Shown: positions 2,223-33,265, numbered from the stretch's first letter. The stretch is DNA of 64,000 nt from a bacterium (GCA_036803205.1 DAIRUS010000001.1:20290-84289); one strand, 5' to 3'. Made by a program: numbers and translations. The notes: generated from the sequence alone by a model not told the origin.

Positions 2223-4202
2223 ATGGGGAAGATAAATAAAAAAAAGCTTTCTTTTTTTCTTCTTTTTTTAGTTCCTTGGATAGCTTTGGCTCAGCCCAGC
2301 TTTGAAATTGACTATCCATTGATAACTGGATTTCCCACCCCAACTTTAGGAGGAAAAGTTTCGGCTCAAGATTTGGCTAATTATATCCAATATATTTTCT
2401 ATTTTGCCATTTTAGCTGGTATTATTTTGGCTCTGGTAATTTTAGTTTTAGGGGGTCTTCGCTATCTCTATTCAGCAGGAAATCCCCAGGTTCAATCCCA
2501 AGCCAGAAGCCAAATAACCAATGCTCTTGTTGGCCTTATTTTACTTTTAGTTTCTTATACCCTTCTCGTTACTATTCGACCCGAATTTGGCAAAGTGGTA
2601 CCGGTTCAACTGCGGGAAGCGAAAATAGTAGTTAATACCTTAAGAAGAGTAAGAAGAACTCTACCTTGGCGGGAAATAGTTGAACAGCTTGAACCATCAT
2701 TCGTTCCCCTGGAAGTAACCTATCCGACAGCCGGCGGATTTAGACCCGAGTTTATTCCTTTTACCACCCCGGCAGCTCCCCACCTTTATCCTTTGGAAAA
2801 ATTAGTTGCCCGCTATGGAAGATACCTTTATGATTTTAGTTTTATGGTTGGAGTTATCTTGGCTCTTCTTTTTATAATTATCGGCGGAATAAAACATTTA
2901 ACTGCTGCTGGAAACATTGCTCAGACTGCTGATGCCAGAGACCAAATTTTTTCTTCTCTTTTGGGCTTACTTTTACTCTTAGGTTCTTATCTCATTCTAA
3001 CTTCCTTTCGACCAGAATTTGCCACCATTGACCCGGCAGAATTAGAAGAAACAGAAATAGAAATAGAACCAGGGGTTTATCTTTGTACTCATCCAATGGA
3101 TAATAATATAAACAATGATTTAATGGCCAGGGTTTGTCGCTGTCGGGACTTAAAAACTTTATCTCAAACTTATGGAGGAGGCGAGTTTATAAATCAGTAT
3201 AATAAAGAATGTTTCTTCACAAAAAGACAAAAAAAAGAACTTTCTACCTTTATTTCCCTCAATTGTTTCTTAATTCAAAGTTCAGAAACCCTACCTCCGG
3301 AGTTAATTGGCGAACCGGTTGATATAAAGAAAGTAGAAGAAGAACTAGAAAAATTAAAAGAAAAAAAATTAATTAGCGATGATGAATACAACGAGATTGT
3401 TAATGGATGGAGAGAGTATAATGCGTCTCGATCAGTAGTAGCCTTTACTGCCCTTTATATTAATGGAAATTATGGAGTTATTTTGCACCAAGAAAAAGAT
3501 TTTAAAGGAAGAGGAGATATAATTATGAAACATGACTTCAAAAACGCGCTTCTTCACTTTTTTCCGGGAAACGAAAGTTTTATTAGATATAGCGATGGGA
3601 TTGTTCACAAGCTGAATACGAATTATTTTTATCGCCATGATCCAAAGACCATTAACCTTTCGTCTTTTAAGTCTGTGACTCTTTTTGAAGATAGGGTGGT
3701 AGATTGCGTCTTAAAAACACCGGCGAAAGATTTCTTTGTCGATATTTCAGATTGTCTTGAAATAAAAAATTTTGACGATGTTACATTTTTTTTCTATAAC
3801 GTTCCTGACTTTGGAACTCTGGAAGAAAAAGAGAAAAATCTTGGATATATTGTAATGCAGTGGGCTGAATTTTTCTCTACTACAGGCGGACGCGCAGCAT
3901 TACATACTCTAGCACGTGGTGGCCATGGAGGAAATGTTAACTTATTAACAGATCTGCTCCGAAACCCAATTTATTCTCTCAAACTGCCGGCAGAAGAAAG
4001 ATGGATTGTCGTGGTTGGAGCACATACGTCAAACCAAACAAATGTGCTGGCTCCTTTTTTCTCAAAACTTTATGTTTTAAATAAAAGTGAAAGAAACTTT
4101 GAGGCAACTTATGTCCGAAGTTTCTGTCAAAAAGGTGATCGGGAATATCCCTGTATTAGCCATTTTTTCGCTTATCCAGGGAAAATGGTTAGACAAAAGT
4201 AA
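2223..4202 (+). CDS. secreted Cys-rich protein carrying two tandem copies of the pilin-like module and a large C-terminal domain
   Basis: Signal peptide MGKINKKKLSFFLLFLVPWIALA|QP. Module 1: EIDYP...LRYLYSAGNPQVQSQARSQITNALVGLILLLVSYTLLVTIRPEF. Module 2: EVTYP...IKHLTAAGNIAQTADARDQIFSSLLGLLLLLGSYLILTSFRPEF. C-terminal GNYGVILHQEKDFKG...YPCISHFFAYPG matches the gene 4204-5745 C-terminus. Start taken at MGK, 1 nt after the upstream stop. Confidence 0.6.
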   Translation: MGKINKKKLSFFLLFLVPWIALAQPSFEIDYPLITGFPTPTLGGKVSAQDLANYIQYIFYFAILAGIILALVILVLGGLRYLYSAGNPQVQSQARSQITNALVGLILLLVSYTLLVTIRPEFGKVVPVQLREAKIVVNTLRRVRRTLPWREIVEQLEPSFVPLEVTYPTAGGFRPEFIPFTTPAAPHLYPLEKLVARYGRYLYDFSFMVGVILALLFIIIGGIKHLTAAGNIAQTADARDQIFSSLLGLLLLLGSYLILTSFRPEFATIDPAELEETEIEIEPGVYLCTHPMDNNINNDLMARVCRCRDLKTLSQTYGGGEFINQYNKECFFTKRQKKELSTFISLNCFLIQSSETLPPELIGEPVDIKKVEEELEKLKEKKLISDDEYNEIVNGWREYNASRSVVAFTALYINGNYGVILHQEKDFKGRGDIIMKHDFKNALLHFFPGNESFIRYSDGIVHKLNTNYFYRHDPKTINLSSFKSVTLFEDRVVDCVLKTPAKDFFVDISDCLEIKNFDDVTFFFYNVPDFGTLEEKEKNLGYIVMQWAEFFSTTGGRAALHTLARGGHGGNVNLLTDLLRNPIYSLKLPAEERWIVVVGAHTSNQTNVLAPFFSKLYVLNKSERNFEATYVRSFCQKGDREYPCISHFFAYPGKMVRQK

Positions 4203-4203
4203 A

Positions 4204-5745
4204 ATGAAAAAAATAATTTTAATTTTGTTTTTGATTTTACCCTGGGAAGTTTTTGCCCAAACTTTTCCTTTTGAGGTTACTTATCCGAGACTTGGACCAG
4301 TTACTCTTCCTTCTCCTCAAGTTGTAGTTGAAGACCCAGGTTATTACATCAGATACCTTTACCAGGCAGGAGTAATTGCTGGTGTTGTTCTTGCTCTTTT
4401 TTCTCTTGCTTTCGGTGGTTTTCTTTTTCTTTTTTCAGCCGGAAATGTTAGTCGACAAATAGAATCCAAAGATCGAATCGCTGGTGCTTTTGTCGGCCTT
4501 TTTCTTTTACTTTCTTCTTTTTTAATTTTGAGGACAATTAACCCTGAATTTACAAGATTCCAATTCAGAAGACCCCCATACCCTTTTACCGAAATTGAAG
4601 AAGGTGTCTGGCTTTGTCAGAAGGAAATTAAGGAAACTTACCAAATGAATAATATAGAACATACTTTGACTTTTGAAGCTTATATCGAATCAAGAAGATC
4701 TATAAGAGAGTATTGGTGGCCAAGCCTTGAGATAGAAGAACAAAAAGCCATTCATAATCTTTATTATAATGTCCATAGCAATTGCCATTTAATTTCTATT
4801 AGTCAAGAATTGCCAGAAAATTTTAGAAGAGCCAGACATGTCTATATTGTTGGAAATTATGGAATAGTTTTTCACCGTTTTCCAAACTTCAAAGGTCCCT
4901 ACAAATTAGTGGCGCTTGAGCGAAAGATGTATCTTGATTTGGATAAGAATATAAATCAAATTGAAAGTGGACCTCGACCTCTGTCTTACTTTGTTTTGCG
5001 TAATGAAGAAATTCCCAATTTTTCCGTGACCTTATTTAAAGACTTTAGATTAGATTATCTGGACTCCTTTGCTGTTGACAAGCGGTTATTACCTTTTCAG
5101 GAATATAGGGGAGAGTTCCCACGGCAAGGAACTATCACCTTTTATACTTTCCGAAACTTTCATGAAGATTTGCCTTCCAAATTCCAGAAGCCTGAGAGCA
5201 CTTGCCCTTCTTTCCGAGACCATCAAGGCTTTCCTCGAGAAACTCAAAAATGTTTTAAAACCTATGAGTTTAAAATCGAAAATTTCTTTGTTACCTTTAA
5301 CCAACAGCCCTTTACTGTTAAGATAGGTAATGATTCATTTATAGAAAATTTTTGGGTAGGCACTGTTTCTCTACATTATATTGGCACTATTGATGGTGGA
5401 AAAATTACCAACGGAGTTGAACTGGACAGCTGTTATTCTCTCAAGATTGATACCCCAGGAAAATACTATGAAGGTAAATCTTGGTGGATAGTAATTGTTA
5501 GAGGATATCCTCGGGAAGACTCTTCATCTCTACCTCTACCACCCGTCGACTTAAACATAGATTTGAGGATCTGGGCAATGCAACAACCTCACTTTTGGGG
5601 TGAAGCTTTTGATAAGAGCGACCGAAACCTTGAAGATAATTATGTTTCCTTTTTTTGCGAGGACAAAGCCAGACAAAAAAGATATCCCTGTGTTCACACA
5701 GCAATTGTTTTCCCTGGAAGAATAATTAAGGAAGTAGAAAGATAG
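4204..5745 (+). CDS. secreted Cys-rich protein with one pilin-like module, paralog of 2223-4202
   Basis: Signal peptide MKKIILILFLILPWEVFA|QT. Module: EVTYP...FLFLFSAGNVSRQIESKDRIAGAFVGLFLLLSSFLILRTINPEF, followed by EIEEGVWLC. C-terminal GNYGIVFHRFPNFKG...YPCVHTAIVFPG is paralogous to the previous gene. Start at MKK, 1 nt after the upstream stop. Confidence 0.6.
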   Translation: MKKIILILFLILPWEVFAQTFPFEVTYPRLGPVTLPSPQVVVEDPGYYIRYLYQAGVIAGVVLALFSLAFGGFLFLFSAGNVSRQIESKDRIAGAFVGLFLLLSSFLILRTINPEFTRFQFRRPPYPFTEIEEGVWLCQKEIKETYQMNNIEHTLTFEAYIESRRSIREYWWPSLEIEEQKAIHNLYYNVHSNCHLISISQELPENFRRARHVYIVGNYGIVFHRFPNFKGPYKLVALERKMYLDLDKNINQIESGPRPLSYFVLRNEEIPNFSVTLFKDFRLDYLDSFAVDKRLLPFQEYRGEFPRQGTITFYTFRNFHEDLPSKFQKPESTCPSFRDHQGFPRETQKCFKTYEFKIENFFVTFNQQPFTVKIGNDSFIENFWVGTVSLHYIGTIDGGKITNGVELDSCYSLKIDTPGKYYEGKSWWIVIVRGYPREDSSSLPLPPVDLNIDLRIWAMQQPHFWGEAFDKSDRNLEDNYVSFFCEDKARQKRYPCVHTAIVFPGRIIKEVER

Positions 5746-5746
5746 T

Positions 5747-6238
5747 TTAAGGATAGGGTCTGATGATGACCTTTCTTTCTGGTTCTTTTCCAGTGCTTTG
5801 GGTGGTAACATCTCCTCTGCCGGCTAATTCCAAATGAATGATTCTTCTTTCATAAGCTGGCATCGGTGGCAAAACTTTTTCTTTTTTGGTTAAAGCTACT
5901 TCGTCGGCTAAACTTTTGGCTAAATCTTTTAAGTATTTAATTTTTTTCTTTTTATAATCATTAATATCCAAATCAATATAAAAAACTTCTTTCTCTCCAA
6001 AAAGAGAAGTTACATTGAAGGACTGACGTCTCCTTTTCAAAATCGCCTTGAGAAGGTGTTGAATTTCCAGCAGCGTTTGTCCACCCTCTCCAATTAAAAG
6101 CTGGGAGTCATCACTGGTCAGATTAATCGGTAAAGTTAAATCTTTAGGAAGACCTATCTCAATTTTTACCTCAAAGCCCATTTTTTGGAAAAATTCGCTA
6201 ACAATTTTTTTTATTTCTTCTAGATTTTGAGTCTTCAT
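5747..6238 (-). CDS. jag: Jag/KhpB RNA-binding protein (KH + R3H domains)
   Basis: KH-like N-terminus and R3H-like ERRIIHLELAGRGDVTTQSTGKEPERKVIIRP. Canonical position downstream of yidC. Confidence 0.75.
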   Translation of the reverse strand: MKTQNLEEIKKIVSEFFQKMGFEVKIEIGLPKDLTLPINLTSDDSQLLIGEGGQTLLEIQHLLKAILKRRRQSFNVTSLFGEKEVFYIDLDINDYKKKKIKYLKDLAKSLADEVALTKKEKVLPPMPAYERRIIHLELAGRGDVTTQSTGKEPERKVIIRPYP

Positions 6239-6981
6239 GTTTTTAAAATAAGTTTTTGCTGAATAATGGAATAAAGCGAGCTAACCGACCAATAAAGGGC
6301 AATGGCTGATGGCAATTGAATTAAGATGAAAAAAGAAAAAAAGATTAAAAAATAAGTCATTTGTTTTTGAAATAACTGGGGAAAATTTTTTGAACCAGCT
6401 TCTTTTTTCATTTTTGGTTGAGCGGTCCGCATTTGGAGAAAAGACAAAACGGTTGCCAAAATTATCAAAGGAAAAACTGGCCAATAATAGGTTATTTGGC
6501 TTTCAACGGTTAGACTAAAGGATTTAGAAAGGTCTAAAATCCCTAAAAAGAAGGGGGAAATAGTGGTTGGTTTTGGAACAAAATGATAAAGATTTTTTAG
6601 TTCTAGCTCGGCCAAGCCATTACCAAAGGCTCTTAAAACCAAAAAAAGGGCAATCATTACCGGTATTTGAATCAGAGGAAATAAAAATCCACCAAAGGGG
6701 TTGACTTTTTTCTCTCGCCAAAGTTTAAGCGTTTCTTGAACTTGTTTTTCTTTGTCGCCATTATATTTCTTTTGAATTTCCTGAAGTTGAGGCTGAATTT
6801 CTTGTATTGCCTTCTGAATCTTTAAAGAACGAGTCACAAAAGGATGTAAAATAAGCCTGATAAGAAGGGTTAAAAAAATAATCGCTATTCCCAAATCATG
6901 GCCGGGTAAAAACTGGACAAATAAAATCAAAAGATTAAAGATGGGCCGATAGAATATTGTATTAAAAATTTCTCCAATCAT
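6235..6981 (-). CDS. yidC: membrane protein insertase YidC (short form)
   Basis: Polytopic protein with YidC/Oxa1-like core (PFGGFLFPLIQIPVMIALFLVLR). Lies within rnpA-yidC-jag synteny. Confidence 0.8.
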   Translation of the reverse strand: MIGEIFNTIFYRPIFNLLILFVQFLPGHDLGIAIIFLTLLIRLILHPFVTRSLKIQKAIQEIQPQLQEIQKKYNGDKEKQVQETLKLWREKKVNPFGGFLFPLIQIPVMIALFLVLRAFGNGLAELELKNLYHFVPKPTTISPFFLGILDLSKSFSLTVESQITYYWPVFPLIILATVLSFLQMRTAQPKMKKEAGSKNFPQLFQKQMTYFLIFFSFFILIQLPSAIALYWSVSSLYSIIQQKLILKT

Positions 6982-7313
6982 AGATTAATTTTTTTAAAGA
7001 AATTACTAATTATCTCTTTTATTTCCAAAAATTTTTGATTTTCAATTCCGGGAAGGGCAATGAAAATAGCGTCTATTCCTTTTTTAAAACCCTTTATTTC
7101 TCCCCTGACTGCTTCCGTCATTCTCCTTTTAATTTTATTGCGCAAAACCGCCTTTTTGGAAATTTTTTGAGAGACGATAAAGCCAAATCGGCTATAACCT
7201 AAATTATTTGATAGAAACTTAATAATTAAAAACTTTTCTTTAAAACTTTTTCCTTCTTTAAAGATCTTTTCAAAATCTTTTTTCTTTTTCAATCGATTCT
7301 TCTTTGCTAACAT
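6978..7313 (-). CDS. rnpA: ribonuclease P protein component
   Basis: Basic 111-aa protein, LAKKNRLKKKKDFEKIF...RNKIKRRMTEAVR. Located downstream of rpmH. Confidence 0.8.
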   Translation of the reverse strand: MLAKKNRLKKKKDFEKIFKEGKSFKEKFLIIKFLSNNLGYSRFGFIVSQKISKKAVLRNKIKRRMTEAVRGEIKGFKKGIDAIFIALPGIENQKFLEIKEIISNFFKKINL

Positions 7314-7604: not shown

Positions 7605-8960
7605 ATGACCAAAGAAGAACTCTGGCAAGCAGTTTTAGCCCAGATTCAACTAACTATTTCTCCGGCTAATTTTGCTACCTGGTTTAAAGACACGGCAATT
7701 GTTTCCCTTCAAGACGGAGTGGCTTTTATCTCTGTTCCAAATTCTTTCGTTAAAGAATGGCTTGAACAAAAATATAACAAAACTATTTTCAAAATTCTTC
7801 ACAGTTTAGATGAAGGAATTAAAGAGATAAAATACGATTTGGGTAAACCCCGACCAAAAATAATTAAAAAAAGTTTTCCCGTCTTGCCAGAAGAAGGTCA
7901 GTTAGAATTTCCCGAATTTAAAGTTGACAAAGAAACAAATCTTAACCCAAGATATACTTTCGATAATTTTATTGTTGGACCGTGTAATGAATTAGCTCAG
8001 GCTGCCGCCTGGGCTGTCTCCCAAAATCCTGGCCAGATTTACAATCCTCTTTTTATTTACGGTGGAGTTGGCTTAGGAAAAACTCATTTGCTCCAAGCAA
8101 TTGGCAATGAAATAGTTAAAAAATTAAATCAAAGAAAAGTTAGATATGTCCAAACAGAAAAATTTATTTCCAATGTCATTTCAGCCATCCGCAACCACCA
8201 AATCGAACAACTTAAGGCACTATATCAACCGATTGACGTTCTTATTATTGATGATATTCAATTTTTAGCCGGAAAAGAAAAAACTCAAGAAGAGTTTTTT
8301 TATATCTTTAATTCTCTCTATGAAAAAAACAAACAAATCGTTCTTTCTTCCGACCGTTCTCCAAAAGCCATTCCAGCTTTAACCGAAAGGCTAAGGTCTC
8401 GGTTTGAAGGAGGAATGATTGCCGATATTACTTTTCCCGATTTTGAAACCAGGATGGCTATTTTAAAAGCAAAGTGTCAAGAAAGAAAAGGTGAATTTTC
8501 CGATGAAATATTAAATTATATTGCCTCAAATATTCAAAGGAATATTAGAAAATTAGAAGGGGCTTTAAACATTTTACTTGCCCACCGAAAACTTCAAGGA
8601 GATTCGCCCAACCTAGAAACAGCCAAGTCATTACTGAAAGACCTCGTCTTATCTCCAGTAAGAGTTATTAATCCAAAAGAAGTCGTCAGGGCAGTGGCTG
8701 ATTTCTATGATTTAAAGGAAAAAGATCTATTTTCTTCCTCTCGAAAAAAAGAAATTGTCAAACCAAGGCAAATAGCTATGTATCTATTAAGGGAAGAATT
8801 AAAAAACTCTTTCCCTTTTATTGGAAGAAAGTTCGGTGGAAAAGACCACACTACCGCCATTCATGCCTATGAAAAAATCTCCAAAGAAATAGAAAAAAAC
8901 GAAAACCTTCGCGAGGAAATTGCCTTAATTAAACAAAGATTTATTAGTGGAGAAATTTAA
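7605..8960 (+). CDS. dnaA: chromosomal replication initiator protein DnaA
   Basis: AAA+ Walker A GGVGLGKTHLLQAIGNE, Walker B LIIDDIQFL, C-terminal DNA-binding domain. 451 aa. Confidence 0.95.
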   Translation: MTKEELWQAVLAQIQLTISPANFATWFKDTAIVSLQDGVAFISVPNSFVKEWLEQKYNKTIFKILHSLDEGIKEIKYDLGKPRPKIIKKSFPVLPEEGQLEFPEFKVDKETNLNPRYTFDNFIVGPCNELAQAAAWAVSQNPGQIYNPLFIYGGVGLGKTHLLQAIGNEIVKKLNQRKVRYVQTEKFISNVISAIRNHQIEQLKALYQPIDVLIIDDIQFLAGKEKTQEEFFYIFNSLYEKNKQIVLSSDRSPKAIPALTERLRSRFEGGMIADITFPDFETRMAILKAKCQERKGEFSDEILNYIASNIQRNIRKLEGALNILLAHRKLQGDSPNLETAKSLLKDLVLSPVRVINPKEVVRAVADFYDLKEKDLFSSSRKKEIVKPRQIAMYLLREELKNSFPFIGRKFGGKDHTTAIHAYEKISKEIEKNENLREEIALIKQRFISGEI

Positions 8961-9108: not shown

Positions 9109-10233
9109 ATGAAATTAACAATTCTAAAAGATGTAATGAAAAAAGGTATAGAGGTTGTCGAAAAAATAACTCAAAAAAATCTTACGCTACCTATTCTTCA
9201 AACAACCATTTTTCAAACAGAAAAAAATTTTTTAACTCTCTCATCTACTAATTTAGAAACAGGAGTTATTTGGTGGGGTTTAGCCAGGATAGAAAAAGAA
9301 GGAAAAATTTGTCTACCAACCAAAGTTTTATCTCAACTTATTAGTTTTGTACCGCAAAAATCTATCTCTTTATTTAAAGAAAACTTATCTCTCTGGGTTG
9401 AATGCGAAAATTATAAAACCGAGATTATCGGATTAGACGCGGAAGAATTTCCAATTATTCCAAAAATTCAAACTGAAAATTCCATTTTGGTTGATACCTC
9501 TCTTTTTTGTCAATCTCTTTCTCAAGTTGTTAAAATTCCTTCTCCTTCTACTGCTCGACCGGAAATTTCCGGAGTTCTTTTGAATTTTCAAGAAAATATA
9601 ATCAAAATTGCCGCCACTGATAGTTTCCGTTTAGCCGAGAAAAAATTGTTTTTACCAAACCCTTTTCCTCAAAAACACTCTTTGATTTTACCCCAGAATT
9701 CAGTTAGAGAAATAATTGGCATTTTTGGAGAGTTGGAAGGAGAAATGCGAATTTATATTTCTCCAAAACAAATATGGTTTGAGTCTCTAATGTCGGAAAT
9801 TTCCCACCCTCAAATTCAGTATACTTCTCGTTTGATTGAAGGGGAATATCCAAATTACGAAGAAATTACTCCTAAAAAATTTGGAACCACTGTTTCTCTC
9901 TCAAAAGAGAAATTATTGAACCAGATTAAAACCGCCAGTCTTTTCAGTGGTAAAAACAATGAAATCATAATGAAAATTGACCCAAAAAATGAAACGATAA
10001 CAATCTTAAGTCAAAGTCCTAATTTAGGAAAATACGAAGGTTCTCTTGCCGGAAAGATTAAAGGAGAAAAAGTAGAAATTGCTTTTAACCACCGTTTTTT
10101 AATAGATGGAATTTTAGAAATAAAAAGTCCGGAATTAACCCTTAATCTAACTAATGAAGAAGGTCCAGCCGTTTTAAGACCAGTTGATCTGGAAGATTAT
10201 TTCTATATTCTAATGCCGATTAAAACTATTTAA
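9109..10233 (+). CDS. dnaN: DNA polymerase III beta sliding clamp
   Basis: 374 aa with three-domain clamp architecture, immediately downstream of dnaA. N-terminus MKLTILKDVMKKGIEVVEKI is typical of DnaN. Confidence 0.85.
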   Translation: MKLTILKDVMKKGIEVVEKITQKNLTLPILQTTIFQTEKNFLTLSSTNLETGVIWWGLARIEKEGKICLPTKVLSQLISFVPQKSISLFKENLSLWVECENYKTEIIGLDAEEFPIIPKIQTENSILVDTSLFCQSLSQVVKIPSPSTARPEISGVLLNFQENIIKIAATDSFRLAEKKLFLPNPFPQKHSLILPQNSVREIIGIFGELEGEMRIYISPKQIWFESLMSEISHPQIQYTSRLIEGEYPNYEEITPKKFGTTVSLSKEKLLNQIKTASLFSGKNNEIIMKIDPKNETITILSQSPNLGKYEGSLAGKIKGEKVEIAFNHRFLIDGILEIKSPELTLNLTNEEGPAVLRPVDLEDYFYILMPIKTI

Positions 10234-14876: not shown

Positions 14877-15965
14877 TTAATCTATTTTTCTTCGGTAATC
14901 AAATTTCTTTTTGAGAAGTAGAATTGTTAATCCAGAGAAAGCAGCAGTGGTTAGAGCGGGAAGAAAAACAAAAAGAAATTTTGACATTTTTTCTTTTAAA
15001 TCTTCTTGTCCAAAAGGGGTAATGACTGTTGCCAGCTCTTTTTTGTCCGATTCTATTTTTAGAAAAGCCAACTCAGGGTCAACCCAGGCCAATCCTTGTT
15101 TTTTAATTTCTTCCAGTTTCCTTTCTCCAAGTCCTTTTACTCGGGTTAACTCATCTAAAGAGTGAAATGGTCTGGCGCTGATTATTCTTTGAGCCAATAC
15201 TTTACCGATGCCGACTAGCTTCTGGAGTTCTTTTGCCGAGGCAGTGTTTATATCTATTTTGAGAGGTTCGACTATATTCGGGTTAACGGTTGTTTTCGAG
15301 GGGATGAATTGTTCTTGGGGGCGGGATGTTTCCTCGTTAGGTTGAAGAGGCTCTACCTTAGACTCTGATTGGGATTTTTCTTGGAATGATTGAGAAGGAG
15401 GGGTTAATTCAAAATCATTAGCATTATTATTTGTATCCTGATAAAGTCCGGCTATTTTTTTTCTTTCTAATTTTTGATTAGGGCCAGGATTTTCCGGAAA
15501 AGAGTTTCCTTCAAAAAGAAGGTTGTCGAAATCGCCCCAGCCAACAGCGTCAATAATTCGACCGGTGTTTTCTTGCCCCAATCTTAAAGCCACGCCATTA
15601 TTTGGAGCAATAGTTTGGGAGGTTGAAGTCTCGACATTGGAGAGAGCTGTATAATCTTTATTTGTCCAGAGATAATATCCTTTGGCCGGAATTTTAGCGT
15701 TTGGTTCTTTTGACCAGGATTTGATAGTATAATCTTTAGCGCTAGTTTTTGTCCTTTTGACCAATCTGATATAGCTGCCTTGATAATTCCCAAGATAGAT
15801 ATCAGAGTTAGTAGGATTGTAAATTTTTATAAAATCGTCAGAAGTTTTTTCTCCGGCAATTTGAACTTCAACAATTAAAAGCTCGGTGGCTAAAGCTAAT
15901 TTTAGAGGAATTAAAGAGATAAATCCCACCGTTAAGAAAACGTTTATTCTTGACAAATTTCTCAT
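14877..15965 (-). CDS. ComEA-like helix-hairpin-helix DNA-binding protein fused to an N-terminal lamin-tail (LTD) domain, with a C-terminal TM helix
   Basis: HhH pair INTASAKELQKLVGIGKVLAQRI...LTRVKGLGERKLEEIK. LTD-like LLIVEVQIAGEKTSDDFIKIYNP...GYYLW. N-terminal signal/TM and C-terminal hydrophobic tail. Confidence 0.65.
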   Translation of the reverse strand: MRNLSRINVFLTVGFISLIPLKLALATELLIVEVQIAGEKTSDDFIKIYNPTNSDIYLGNYQGSYIRLVKRTKTSAKDYTIKSWSKEPNAKIPAKGYYLWTNKDYTALSNVETSTSQTIAPNNGVALRLGQENTGRIIDAVGWGDFDNLLFEGNSFPENPGPNQKLERKKIAGLYQDTNNNANDFELTPPSQSFQEKSQSESKVEPLQPNEETSRPQEQFIPSKTTVNPNIVEPLKIDINTASAKELQKLVGIGKVLAQRIISARPFHSLDELTRVKGLGERKLEEIKKQGLAWVDPELAFLKIESDKKELATVITPFGQEDLKEKMSKFLFVFLPALTTAAFSGLTILLLKKKFDYRRKID

Positions 15966-16107: not shown

Positions 16108-17406
16108 TTATTCAGCAGTCACCCTTTCTATTTCCTCGAAAGTTGTTTTTCCTTCTAAAACTTTAATATATCCATCGAGATGCATTTCGACCATTCCTTT
16201 TTTTATTGCCAGCTCCTTCAAATCGACAATTGAAGGGTTGGTTAAAATAAACCTTTCCATCTCGTCATCGACAACAAAGACTTCAAAAATACCCATCCTT
16301 CCTTTGTAACCGGTAAAATTACAACTTCGACAACCCTTAGTCACAGGAACTTTCATCCATGACCTTAGCTCTTTGACTTTCACGTTTTTAGGAAGACCCT
16401 TAAATGCCTCTTGTAATTTAGTCAAGCGTTCAGACGAAATTAGCTGGAATTGGACGCATTCTTTGCAGACCTTTCTGACTAACCTTTGACCAATAACTAA
16501 ATTTAAGGCGGGAGCGATATTACTTAGTTTTTCTCCTAAAGATTGTAAGCGAGCGACCGTGCCAGCGGCATCATTGGTATGCACGGTGGTAAGGACCAAA
16601 TGACCGGTTAAGGCTGCTTGGAAAGAGATTTGAGCGGTTTCAGAATCGCGGATTTCTCCGACTAAAATAACATCTGGGTCTTGTCTGACAACCGCTCTTA
16701 GGGCATTAGCGAAAGTGTAGCCTTTTGATTCGTCAACTTGACTCTGAGAAACTCCTTTTAAGTGATATTCGATGGGGTCCTCGATAGTGATGATTTTAAT
16801 TTCTGGAGAAGTTAGTTTTTGAAGAAAAGCATAAAGGGTGGTGGTTTTTCCTGAACCAGTCGGACCAGTACAGATAATCATTCCGGTGGGTTTTTTTAGT
16901 TCCTCATAAAAAACTTTCAGCATATCTTCTCTTAAATCAAGGTCTTCCATGCTCACTACCCACTTTGGGTTTAGAATTCTCATTACTATTGCTTCTCCAT
17001 ATTCAGAGGGGAGAGAGGAGGTTCTGATTTCAATCGAGGTATCTTCAATTAAAAGAGAAAAACGACCATCTTGAGGCCGGTTGGTTATATTGAGTTTTAA
17101 ACCGGAGAGAAGTTTCAAACGGGAAAGCAAAGCTTGATAAACAGCAAGGTCTAACAATAAAACATCATGCAAAACTCCGTCAATTCGGATGCGTAAAAGA
17201 ACATTTTCTTTTTTTGGCTCTAGATGGATATCGGAAGCGTCAAGGTAGAGAGTGCCGATTAGGAGGATTTCAACTAAGCCGGTTATTTCTCCGGAGAGAA
17301 GTCTTTCAATTTCTTTCTTGAAATCTAAGATACATTTTATTTTTTCTTTGGCGACCAAAGTTTTTTCCGGTGAAATTTTGACTTGGCCGGTGAGTTTTTC
17401 TCTCAT
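16108..17406 (-). CDS. type II/IV secretion-family ATPase (PilB/GspE/ComGA-like)
   Basis: Walker A ICTGPTGSGKTTTLYAF. Asp box, His box and C-terminal tetracysteine (CKEC...CRSC) typical of PilB/GspE. Adjacent to ComEA-like. Confidence 0.8.
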   Translation of the reverse strand: MREKLTGQVKISPEKTLVAKEKIKCILDFKKEIERLLSGEITGLVEILLIGTLYLDASDIHLEPKKENVLLRIRIDGVLHDVLLLDLAVYQALLSRLKLLSGLKLNITNRPQDGRFSLLIEDTSIEIRTSSLPSEYGEAIVMRILNPKWVVSMEDLDLREDMLKVFYEELKKPTGMIICTGPTGSGKTTTLYAFLQKLTSPEIKIITIEDPIEYHLKGVSQSQVDESKGYTFANALRAVVRQDPDVILVGEIRDSETAQISFQAALTGHLVLTTVHTNDAAGTVARLQSLGEKLSNIAPALNLVIGQRLVRKVCKECVQFQLISSERLTKLQEAFKGLPKNVKVKELRSWMKVPVTKGCRSCNFTGYKGRMGIFEVFVVDDEMERFILTNPSIVDLKELAIKKGMVEMHLDGYIKVLEGKTTFEEIERVTAE

Positions 17407-30802: not shown

Positions 30803-33265
30803 ATGCCATTTTTTTTCTTGAATTTGATTTTCTTTTTCTTATTTCTTTTTATACTATTTTTTATCATTTACCTCTTTTTAAGGGGTGGGAAAATAAAAGG
30901 TTTTTTTAATCGGAGTATGAACCTGGCTCTTTTTTTGGTCACTCTTCCTCAACGGATTGAAAAAGAAATTTCTTTGCCAGAACATCTCAAGCTAGCCGAA
31001 CAATTCTATGCTTCTTTAGCTGGTCTTCAAGAAAAAAATAAATTTTTAAAATTTTTAATCGGCAATCCGGTCTTAGTTTTCGAAATTGCTGTCCATCGAA
31101 TTGGAGAGGAAATTTATTTTTATGTCGCTTGCCCCCGATCGATTTCTCAGTTAATGGAGAAGCAAATTCTCGGCTTTTGGCCCAAAGCCCAAGTTCAGCC
31201 GGTTTCTGACTATAATATTTTCAATCCGGTTGGTTTTTCGGTTGGGAGCGAGGCTTTTTTGGCAAAGTCAGCTGTTTTACCATTGAAATCTTCAAAAGAT
31301 TTTGGAACCGATCCCCTTTCAGCTATCACTTCGGTTTTTACCAAATTAGCCCGCGAAGGAGAAGGAGCGGCTATTCAAATTTTATTTCGACCGAGTCAAT
31401 CTCAAATTAAGAAAATTAGTCAGAACGTGATTAATCTATTAAAAGGCGGAATGCAACTTGAAGGAGCTTTAAAAAATGCTCAGGCAGCCACCGGTATTGG
31501 CGGTTTTCTTAAAGTCCCAGGTGAAATCTTCTCAGCTAAACCTATTCAAACAACAAAAACCTCTGAGAAAACTTTTTTTCCGCCACCAATCACCGCCGAA
31601 CAACAAGAGATTATATCTACCCTTGATAAAAAATCAGCCCAACCTCTTTTTGATGTTAATCTAAGAATTTTAACCTCTGCCCTCACCGAAATCAGGGCTC
31701 AAGAAATTCTTAGCCAATTGGAGATTTCTTTTGGACAATTCAACAGCCCGGTTTTAAATCAGATTAAATTTAAAAAACTCTCAGGCCGGAGGTTAAAAGA
31801 GCTTTTTTATAATTTTTCTTTTAGAATTTTTAATGAGTCGGCAACAATGCTTCTTTCTTCAGAAGAATTAGCCAATCTTTATCATTTTCCCTCTTCAAGC
31901 TTGCTCACCCCTTACATCAAATGGTTGAAAGGCAGACAGGCTCCTCCGCCCCCAAATCTTCCCCGAGAAGGCATTATTATTGGCAAAAATGTTTTTCGCT
32001 CTGAAGAAAGGTTGGTTCCAATTTTGAGAGACGACCGACGACGTCACTTTTATATCATCGGCCAGACAGGAACGGGAAAATCAGTTTTACTCCAAGAGAT
32101 GATGAGGCAAGATATGAGGGTTGGCGAAGGCGTAGCCTTGATTGATCCCCACGGCGATTTAGCCGAAAGAGTTTTAGGATTGATTCCTTCTTCTCGGATT
32201 GAAGATGTGATCTATTTTGATCCTGGGGATATTGAAAGACCGCTTGGTTTAAATATGCTTGAATACGATATTAAATTTCCCGAATCAAAAATTTTTGTTG
32301 TCAATGAGCTTTTGGAAATTTTTGAAAAACTCTATAATCTCAAAGCCTTAGGTTTTGGGGGGCCGGTTTTCGAGCAATATATGAGAAATGCCCTTTTATT
32401 GGTAATGGAAGATCCCGAATCGGGAAACACTTTAATTGAAGTCCCAAGAGTTTTAGCTGATAAAGATTTTCGGAAATATAAACTTTCGCGCTGCCAAAAT
32501 ATAGTAGTCAAAAATTTCTGGGAGTTAGAAGCAGAAAAAGTCGGCGGAGAAGCGGCTTTAGCCAATATGGTTCCTTACCTCACCAGTAAAATGAATATTT
32601 TTATTGCCAACGATTTAGTCCGACCGATTATTGCTCAACAATCTTCTTCTTTTAATTTCCGAGAAGTAATGGATCAAGGAAAAATTTTAATTATTAACCT
32701 TTCTAAAGGCAAATTGGGTGATATAAATAGTTATCTTTTAGGAATGATTACTGTGGGTAAAATTTTAATTGCTGCTTTTTCTCGGGCCGATATTCCCGAA
32801 GAAAAGAGGCGGGATTTTTATCTTTATATTGATGAATTTCATAATGTGACCACCAGAACGATTATTTCCGCCCTAGCTGAAGCAAGAAAATATCGGCTCA
32901 ATTTAATTCTTTCCCATCAATTCATCGGGCAACTTGACGAAGAAACGAGGAAGGCTATTTTTGGCAACGTTGGTTCAATGTTAACCTTTAGATTAGGACC
33001 TGACGATGCAAAATATTTGATTACTGAGTATGAACCGGTTTTTGATGAAAATGACTTTGTTAACCTCGACAATTATAATGCCGCCCTACGCCTTCTGATT
33101 AATGGTGAAGCTTCCAAACCTTTTAACATTGTTACTTTTCCGCCGAGCAAAAGTAATCCTGAGGTTGCTAAACTTGTAAAAGAATATTCCCGTGCTAAAT
33201 ATGGTCGTGACCGTACCTTAGTAGAGTCAGATCTCTATCAGCGACTTTCAAAAAGTTATTTTTAA
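30803..33265 (+). CDS. type IV secretion coupling protein (TrwB/TraD/VirD4 family ATPase)
   Basis: N-terminal TM helices. Walker A FYIIGQTGTGKSVLLQEMM, then VALIDPHGDL (compare TrwB ...GATGTGKSVLLREL...VIVDPNGDM, recalled from memory). Walker B YLYIDEFHNV (T4CP-type DEF). LILSHQ. Confidence 0.75.
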   Translation: MPFFFLNLIFFFLFLFILFFIIYLFLRGGKIKGFFNRSMNLALFLVTLPQRIEKEISLPEHLKLAEQFYASLAGLQEKNKFLKFLIGNPVLVFEIAVHRIGEEIYFYVACPRSISQLMEKQILGFWPKAQVQPVSDYNIFNPVGFSVGSEAFLAKSAVLPLKSSKDFGTDPLSAITSVFTKLAREGEGAAIQILFRPSQSQIKKISQNVINLLKGGMQLEGALKNAQAATGIGGFLKVPGEIFSAKPIQTTKTSEKTFFPPPITAEQQEIISTLDKKSAQPLFDVNLRILTSALTEIRAQEILSQLEISFGQFNSPVLNQIKFKKLSGRRLKELFYNFSFRIFNESATMLLSSEELANLYHFPSSSLLTPYIKWLKGRQAPPPPNLPREGIIIGKNVFRSEERLVPILRDDRRRHFYIIGQTGTGKSVLLQEMMRQDMRVGEGVALIDPHGDLAERVLGLIPSSRIEDVIYFDPGDIERPLGLNMLEYDIKFPESKIFVVNELLEIFEKLYNLKALGFGGPVFEQYMRNALLLVMEDPESGNTLIEVPRVLADKDFRKYKLSRCQNIVVKNFWELEAEKVGGEAALANMVPYLTSKMNIFIANDLVRPIIAQQSSSFNFREVMDQGKILIINLSKGKLGDINSYLLGMITVGKILIAAFSRADIPEEKRRDFYLYIDEFHNVTTRTIISALAEARKYRLNLILSHQFIGQLDEETRKAIFGNVGSMLTFRLGPDDAKYLITEYEPVFDENDFVNLDNYNAALRLLINGEASKPFNIVTFPPSKSNPEVAKLVKEYSRAKYGRDRTLVESDLYQRLSKSYF

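Follow-up and report, generated by a model that had tools for sequence, protein, structure and literature searches.

The subject of this analysis is a gene near the beginning of a 64,000-nucleotide stretch of DNA from a bacterium of the candidate phyla radiation (GCA_036803205.1, DAIRUS010000001.1:20290-84289), the whole of which is here called the window; all coordinates count from its first nucleotide. The gene, an open reading frame (ORF) that runs from an ATG at 2223 to a stop codon at 4200-4202 (+), encodes a product of 659 amino acids (aa) and belongs to a tandem array of genes carrying a pilin module of a type IV secretion system (T4SS) family, PF18895 (T4SS_pilin). Its own product carries this module of about 100 aa twice. 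The repeat is confirmed: on the evidence of sequence comparison it is real, stands far above chance and appears ancient.

An earlier note on this DNA had proposed such a repeat, and self-alignment of the protein bears it out. When the N-terminal 149 aa were compared with the following 151 aa, residues 24-128 aligned with residues 155-271 at 38% identity over 116 aa (BLASTP with compositional adjustment, E 7e-15). PF18895 scores 44.7 bits against the 659-aa protein (gathering threshold 26.6) in two matched stretches, and recognises module 1 and module 2 separately when each is excised; indeed, all 12 modules excised from the window and from orthologs match this family, the best with an E value of 5e-11. 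A custom hidden Markov model (HMM) of the module places domains at residues 23-124 and 157-268. The compositionally adjusted E value, together with the separate PF18895 matches, rules out chance or compositional similarity. The two copies also have in common the motifs E-x-x-YP, SAGN (AAGN in the second copy) and RPEF, all of which lie outside the hydrophobic helices: the similarity is thus more than one of transmembrane composition. No repeat between the two modules was found at the DNA level, which indicates that the module duplication is old.

On the layout of the protein, hydropathy and AlphaFold2 are in accord. A signal peptide predicted from sequence and hydropathy (residues 1-23; 2223-2291, +), comprising a lysine-rich n-region, a hydrophobic core and the residues ALA followed by Q, aligns with the N-termini of orthologs and of neighbouring genes, and is probably cleaved. 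Pilin module 1 (residues 24-122; 2292-2588, +) opens with EIDYP (residues 28-32), continues through helix 1, an SAGN loop and helix 2, and closes with RPEF (residues 119-122); when excised it matches PF18895 at E 6.6e-9. An inter-module linker (residues 123-157; 2589-2693, +), recognised by hydropathy and by its alignment to signal peptides, carries the conserved motif VVNxLRRxR..L.W. Pilin module 2 (residues 158-266; 2694-3020, +), found by BLASTP, the HMM and PF18895, opens with LEVTYP (residues 163-168) and runs through a 10-aa insertion (RPEFIPFTTP), helix 3, an AAGN loop and helix 4 to a closing RPEF (residues 263-266). The remainder is a C-terminal domain of about 390 aa (3021-4199, +), predicted to be extracytoplasmic and delimited by alignment and by collinearity with the product of the next gene.

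The earlier note had each copy ending in RPEF followed by EIEPGVYLC, and had ascribed the same RPEF to the neighbouring gene. RPEF does close both modules; EIEPGVYLC (residues 280-288), however, follows copy 2 only, copy 1 being followed by the linker, and the neighbour at 4204-5745 has NPEF, not RPEF, ahead of its EIEEGVWLC. A third RPEF occurs at residues 174-177 (2742-2753), within the 10-aa insertion near the N-terminus of module 2 (GFRPEFIPF). Four orthologs keep this stretch in the form GFRP..[IV]P[FL], and the most distant one has KFQPSYIPF; the motif echoes the RPEF that closes the modules.

That one polypeptide should contain two VirB2-like helical hairpins, as the same note suggested, is supported by both hydropathy and structure prediction. 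Four hydrophobic segments follow the signal peptide, and AlphaFold2 predicts two helix-loop-helix units, with helices at approximately residues 48-83 and 88-117 (hairpin 1) and 191-227 and 232-261 (hairpin 2), at a hairpin pLDDT of about 70; the segment between them is poorly structured. The classical TrbC/VirB2 layout – a signal peptide and then a two-helix hairpin with a short loop – is present by hydropathy and predicted secondary structure, with the hairpin occurring twice.

The two-module arrangement is not confined to the window. A search of 5.8 billion proteins yielded five full-length orthologs (P0002-P0006; 633-658 aa, 36-63% identity) from NCBI, JGI and ENA assemblies, and in all five both modules lie in one reading frame. 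Three further cluster representatives built in this way (P0011, P0015 and P0016) came from an exhaustive profile search, and the double-module gene is found again in L004 (CAZGXQ010000041.1), the sole genome match in a collection of species representatives (GTDB). A double-module gene in the form of a single ORF is therefore present in at least eight orthologs from independent assemblies, identities having been measured for five. The earlier note had raised the possibility that other assemblies would reveal a frameshifted fusion of two genes; instead, at least eight orthologs keep both modules uninterrupted, and a frameshift or assembly fusion is rejected, all orthologs having one ORF.

The array and its genomic setting

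Comparison with orthologous loci shows the gene at 2223-4202 to be, as judged from sequence, the third of four paralogous pilin-module genes that close a T4SS cluster of the Patescibacteria type – monoderm and MPF-FATA-like – the core genes of which are seen in those loci. Between 3 and 5745 the window holds three complete pilin-module genes and one truncated gene, a tandem PF18895 array. The first array gene (3-1166, +) is represented by its 3′ part, its N-terminal module lying upstream of the window: its translation is collinear with the last ~390 aa of a 664-aa protein (L001:6936-8930) whose module stands at its N-terminus. The second (1163-2221, +) encodes 352 aa comprising a signal peptide, one pilin module (PF18895 26.8 bits; one domain by the custom HMM) and a cysteine-rich C-terminal domain, and has same-position orthologs in the loci L001-L004. 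The fourth (4204-5745, +) encodes 513 aa with a signal peptide, one pilin module and a C-terminal domain homologous to that of the third; these features are supported by Pfam, the HMM and BLASTP, and its orthologs include P0050 and P0189-P0191. Downstream lie jag (5747-6238), yidC (6235-6981), rnpA (6978-7313), dnaA (7605-8960) and dnaN (9109-10233), the Pfam labels for which were taken from orthologous loci. The array in the window is thus near dnaA, dnaN, rnpA and rpmH, as are the T4SS arrays of Patescibacteria.

In two of the orthologous loci (L001 and L002) the gene order comprises a protein of ~780 aa that matches no Pfam family, another of ~135 aa, PrgI (VirB3-like, PF12666), a TraC-like protein (PF26593), an ATPase of the VirB4 type (~595 aa), one more protein of ~110 aa and then four pilin-module genes encoding 664, 356, 658 and 503 aa; after the array come, in convergent orientation, jag, yidC, rnpA and rpmH, followed by dnaA and dnaN. 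From the array onward the gene order of the window agrees with that of both. The same four-gene order is found in L004, and the first three genes are present in L003, which is truncated downstream. Three further loci (L005:8001-8417, L006:1042-1458 and L007:3391-3807) have in the same slot, between the ~111-aa gene that comes after virB4 and jag, one stand-alone pilin of 138 aa that is 46-48% identical to module 1. Set beside the four-gene loci, these indicate that related genomes show one of two alternative states: a single minimal pilin, or an expanded array in which four pilin-module proteins are large and specialised. Conservation of the four-gene order across genomes points to what may be specialised roles, rather than free variation in copy number.

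The C-terminal domain is lineage-specific and shared with the next gene. Module 2 together with the C-terminal region is collinear with the entire product of 4204-5745 (BLASTP E 4e-19). An alignment of the domain (A4) contains 32 invariant columns, and of its cysteines six are conserved among orthologs of the third gene, four of these being found also in orthologs of the fourth. No Pfam or NCBIfam family matched the domain, and a profile search of the 5.8 billion proteins returned, as sole homologs, orthologs of array genes 3 and 4. The AlphaFold2 model, built from 11 sequences, has a mean pLDDT of 56.6 and is confident for the first ~155 residues only; a Foldseek search of the PDB with it yielded no similar structure (lowest E 0.67).

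Elsewhere in the window are genes that may bear on secretion or pili. An 820-aa protein (30803-33265, +), about 25 kb from the pilin array, shows weak VirD4/TraD-type matches limited to the P-loop region (TrwB_AAD_bind 6.7e-11; SXT_TraD 1.5e-8, far under its cut-off) and is a possible T4SS coupling ATPase. A ComEA-like protein with HHH_3 and lamin-tail domains (14877-15965, –) and a PilB/T2SSE ATPase (16108-17406, –), both about 10 kb from the array, are type IV pilus or competence genes.

Origin and wider occurrence of paired modules

A central issue is how two modules came to occupy one gene. The earlier note described an internal tandem duplication; that two modules are present is clear, but an internal origin is not established. 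In a neighbour-joining tree of 50 modules (100 bootstrap replicates), module 1 of nine orthologs of the third gene formed one clade (bootstrap 70) and module 2 another (bootstrap 80). The event is therefore older than the divergence of the orthologs. The two clades were sisters in none of the 100 replicates, the deep nodes being weak. Mean identity between module 1 and module 2 is 36%, the same as is seen when modules from different array genes are compared (32-39%), and module 1 is 38-43% identical on average to stand-alone small pilins. Each module is at least as distant from its partner as from the modules of adjacent genes; the pair may therefore descend from two already diverged array genes that fused long ago, and this is just as likely as duplication within a single gene. 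Neither copy appears to be degenerating, as within-clade identities of 51% (module 1) and 53% (module 2) attest. A recent duplication is rejected on two counts: the lack of a DNA-level repeat and the separation of the modules into distinct clades across orthologs.

The linker offers a further clue. The linker sequence AKIVVNTLRRVRRTLPWREIVEQ can be aligned position for position with true signal peptides: with GKINKKKLSFFLLFLVPWIALAQ preceding module 1, with LILPWEVFAQ of the next gene and also with that of gene 2. Its mean hydropathy is -0.35, as against 2.43 for a real signal-peptide core, and two of its residues, N138 and L140, do not vary across six orthologs. The alignment is suggestive, and not proof, that the linker is a decayed internal signal peptide. 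Had its hydrophobicity persisted, the linker would have made a fifth pass through the membrane and flipped the topology of all downstream parts. Together with the tree, this alignment fits a fusion or duplication that would have involved a whole precursor unit. The collinearity of module 2 and the C-terminal domain with the next gene makes 'signal peptide, one module, C-domain' the simplest ancestor, with the extra module gained N-terminally. No locus with the split state – module 1 as a gene of its own directly upstream of a single-module ortholog – was found among those fetched.

Extension of the analysis to the family at large revealed that concatenation of modules is recurrent. A search with the module profile returned 50,916 cluster representatives at E <= 1e-3. 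Module counts were obtained from the best 150 of these, together with the orthologs – a set biased toward high summed scores – and in it 81 proteins have one module, 25 have two, 16 have three, ten have four, eight have five, seven have six and five have seven, with one protein each having eight, nine and ten. Pfam recognises six T4SS_pilin stretches in P0012 (552 aa), eight in P0025 (1147 aa) and seven in P0039 (1775 aa); the three proteins carry from six to at least ten pilin modules, P0025 having eight to ten. Two of them also match TrbC/VirB2 (PF04956) strongly (P0025 at 1.2e-42, P0039 at 1e-23). Other members combine modules with additional domains: in P0008 (891 aa) and P0010 (916 aa) relatives of the products of 2223-4202 and 4204-5745 are fused as [module-module-C-domain]-[module-C-domain]; in P0013 (618 aa) an SLT lytic transglycosylase domain (PF01464, 1.5e-21) comes after four modules; P0009 has three modules and a cysteine-rich tail; and P0133 has three hairpins.

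A less biased sample was obtained by scanning metagenome contigs with a degenerate DNA motif, which gave 120 loci. Of these, 74 carry the module, in 143 module-bearing ORFs: 140 with a single module and three (~2%) with two. Among 116 complete single-module ORFs in the same sample, 41 exceed 250 aa. Tandem modules are thus rare but recurrent, and appended domains are common. The view in the earlier note that a covalently linked pair would be unusual must be read in this light: it holds only relative to textbook VirB2. Within the family, proteins with from two to at least ten modules are found in many clusters defined at 50% identity, though two-module ORFs are just ~2% of those bearing the module in the motif-picked sample. 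Module multiplication may, moreover, have occurred more than once, as is suggested by a group of two-module proteins of ~490 aa (P0019, P0026 and P0027), all the modules of which cluster together (support 67), the P0019 pair being joined weakly (support 42).

Possible assembly of the hairpin pair

What might a covalent pair of hairpins do? The reading that we favour, and to which we assign a probability of about one half, is that the protein is a pilin-type covalent hairpin pair that co-assembles with the proteins of the array into a T4SS surface structure displaying the ectodomain. Insertion would be by Sec/YidC, with subsequent cleavage of the signal peptide. Each hairpin would then begin and end outside the cell, so that the number of modules could change with no change in topology, and the ectodomain would stay outside. 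The hairpins would be the parts handled by VirB4-driven machinery, or would be embedded in the membrane or filament, and co-assembly with the other three array proteins would give rise to a T4SS-associated surface structure with its ectodomains facing the host cell. In such a structure the covalent pair would fill two neighbouring pilin positions, providing one bulky ectodomain per two hairpins, and each hairpin could be specialised for a different neighbour. Separate conservation of the two modules (51% and 53% within, 36% between), combined with the fixed four-gene order, suggests that module 1 and module 2 may indeed have distinct roles.

Several points weigh against this reading. No pilus or filament has been observed in these organisms, and assembly is thus an inference. 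The core T4SS genes lie outside the window, the array running off its 5′ end, and are deduced from the orthologous loci L001 and L002. The full-length AlphaFold2 model is poor (mean pLDDT 43.8), and the packing of the hairpins cannot be judged from it. The predicted extracellular linker has a net charge of +4, which is atypical of a segment on the outside. Only one of the 12 excised modules matches TrbC/VirB2 (PF04956), at E 0.054, and a profile search found no solved pilin among PDB sequences; the module family and PF04956 appear to be linked indirectly only, through the strong PF04956 matches of other multi-module members. An adhesin role for an ectodomain with no recognisable family or fold is a guess, and a tightly packed filament of the VirB2 type would leave little room for a 390-aa domain borne by every second hairpin.

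A less probable, though possible, account is that the hairpins do not polymerise at all, being instead membrane anchors or elements of a channel wall: on this view the protein would be either an integral membrane part of the T4SS with four helices or one displayed at the surface, and extra hairpins would add VirB6-like membrane mass. Members with three to at least ten hairpins and little else (P0012 with six, P0025 with eight to ten, P0133 with three) do resemble polytopic membrane proteins, and the lytic transglycosylase that P0013 fuses to four hairpins would need anchoring, not polymerisation. That roughly one complete single-module ORF in three exceeds 250 aa in the motif-picked sample points the same way, as does the fact that pili are normally missing from Gram-positive-type T4SSs (PMC12102498). 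Against anchoring stand the versions of 98-194 aa that occur alone in the same genomic slot and have the size of true VirB2 pilins, the strong TrbC/VirB2 matches of some multi-module members, which tie the module to real pilins, and the conserved basic residues that flank the loop, as in lipid-binding pilins.

More doubtful, but more far-reaching, is the idea that the two diverged, covalently linked hairpins serve as an adaptor within a heteropolymeric filament or stalk of the T4SS, each docking a different array paralog and the pair fixing the order and stoichiometry of a four-protein host-contact structure. More generally, the VirB2-type hairpin may be a topologically neutral unit that can be freely concatenated (two to at least ten copies) and fused to enzymes such as SLT. 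Were this so, these proteins would constitute an unrecognised class of 'poly-pilin' proteins.

It is unlikely that the protein is instead a polyprotein precursor, with cleavage in the linker yielding module 1 as a small free pilin and, separately, a pilin-ectodomain protein made up of module 2 and the C-domain. The linker does align with signal peptides, its end forming a junction (PSF/PTx-E-x-x-YP) that resembles a real cleavage region, and the mean identity of module 1 to stand-alone small pilins (38-43%) is no lower than that to module 2 (36%). The hydrophobic core of the linker has, however, been lost (hence the negative mean hydropathy, -0.35), and the linker of no ortholog contains a site of the A-x-A type, which makes cleavage there by signal peptidase I unlikely; moreover, the conserved VVNxLRRxR suggests that the linker has retained a structural role. 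Finally, that the two-module gene is an artefact – adjacent pilin genes fused by a frameshift or assembly error, which a single indel could bring about given that array genes overlap or sit 1-4 bases apart, or hydrophobic segments alike by chance – is scarcely credible in the face of the same uninterrupted two-module ORF in at least eight orthologs from independent assemblies, a compositionally adjusted E value of 7e-15, independent PF18895 matches to each copy and conserved non-hydrophobic motifs shared by both.

The T4SS and its pilin array are essential to the epibiotic life of the one Patescibacterium that has been genetically tested, and their function is unknown (PMC10633639, PMC11665869). 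No current view is overturned by the present protein, which is one instance of a recurrent architecture; it nonetheless bears on an essential and unexplained machine, and concrete constructs follow from it – one versus two hairpins, with versus without the ectodomain.

Comparison with known systems

With the classical pilins VirB2, TrbC and TraA the protein shares a signal peptide, two hydrophobic helices, a short loop with flanking basic residues and, in the orthologous loci, a VirB4 ATPase encoded alongside. It differs in that classical pilins, of ~70-120 aa when mature, have one hairpin and no appended domain, whereas here there are two hairpins and an ectodomain, in a monoderm host. In pilus structures both termini of the classical conjugative pilins lie outside, and TrbC and VirB2 undergo head-to-tail cyclisation; both termini of the present protein are likewise predicted to be outside.

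The placing of a large exposed domain after a polymerisation or anchoring module, in a protein encoded beside plain pilins, has precedents in FimH of chaperone-usher pili and in CofB/TcpB of type IV pili. The logic is the same as here; the folds and assembly machines are unrelated, and we know of no tandem pair of pilin modules in either FimH or CofB/TcpB.

A further likeness is to the 'Mbov_0395 family pilin-like conjugal transfer protein' of the Mycoplasma integrative and conjugative element (ICE), which NCBIfam describes as NF045849: this model matches residues 51-116 of module 1 (2373-2570) at 36.8 bits (E 2.3e-9), under its 40-bit cut-off. The resemblance is that of a small two-helix pilin-like protein belonging to a monoderm conjugation system of the MPF-FATA type; unlike the two-module protein described here, members of NF045849 have a single short module. 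The near-match hints that further monoderm systems of this type, said to be without VirB2, may also have pilin-like hairpins.

The closest counterparts are the VirB2-like arrays of Patescibacteria (Wang et al. 2023, PMC10633639; Quinonero-Coronel et al. 2025, PMC12102498). These belong to the same family, PF18895, and comprise divergent tandem paralogs (~25-40% identity, as here) by virB4, PrgI and TraC-like genes near dnaA, dnaN, rnpA and rpmH. In the Saccharibacterium Southlakia epibionticum, pilins predicted from the T4SS cluster are essential (PMC10633639). The 2025 survey, made with PF18895 and PF04956, recorded VirB2-like arrays of 2-11 genes near virB4 in 383 assemblies, and T4SS genes near dnaA, dnaN, rnpA and rpmH in most classes of Patescibacteria, including Paceibacteria and Microgenomatia (PMC12102498). 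T4SSs of the Gram-positive type are normally without pili (PMC10633639, PMC12102498), and a 2025 review regards a possible pilus as an open question (PMC12857230).

In the published arrays the members were counted as separate pilin genes, and large C-terminal ectodomains go unmentioned in the searchable text; here, there are two modules per polypeptide and an ectodomain. The occurrence of several pilin modules in one polypeptide is likewise unmentioned in the searchable text of PMC10633639, PMC12102498 and PMC12857230, or in targeted searches of the literature for multi-module or fused VirB2 pilins. The single protein with several hairpins is thus a rare, recurring and apparently undescribed variant of the known pilin arrays of Patescibacteria. 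What changes is the way in which such arrays are read: in some members several hairpins are covalently joined and large ectodomains attached, this lineage keeps the set of four genes as a unit, and related genomes have a single 138-aa pilin in its slot. Counts of 'pilin genes', given multi-hairpin members, ectodomains and variation in what fills the slot, therefore understate the structural diversity of these arrays.

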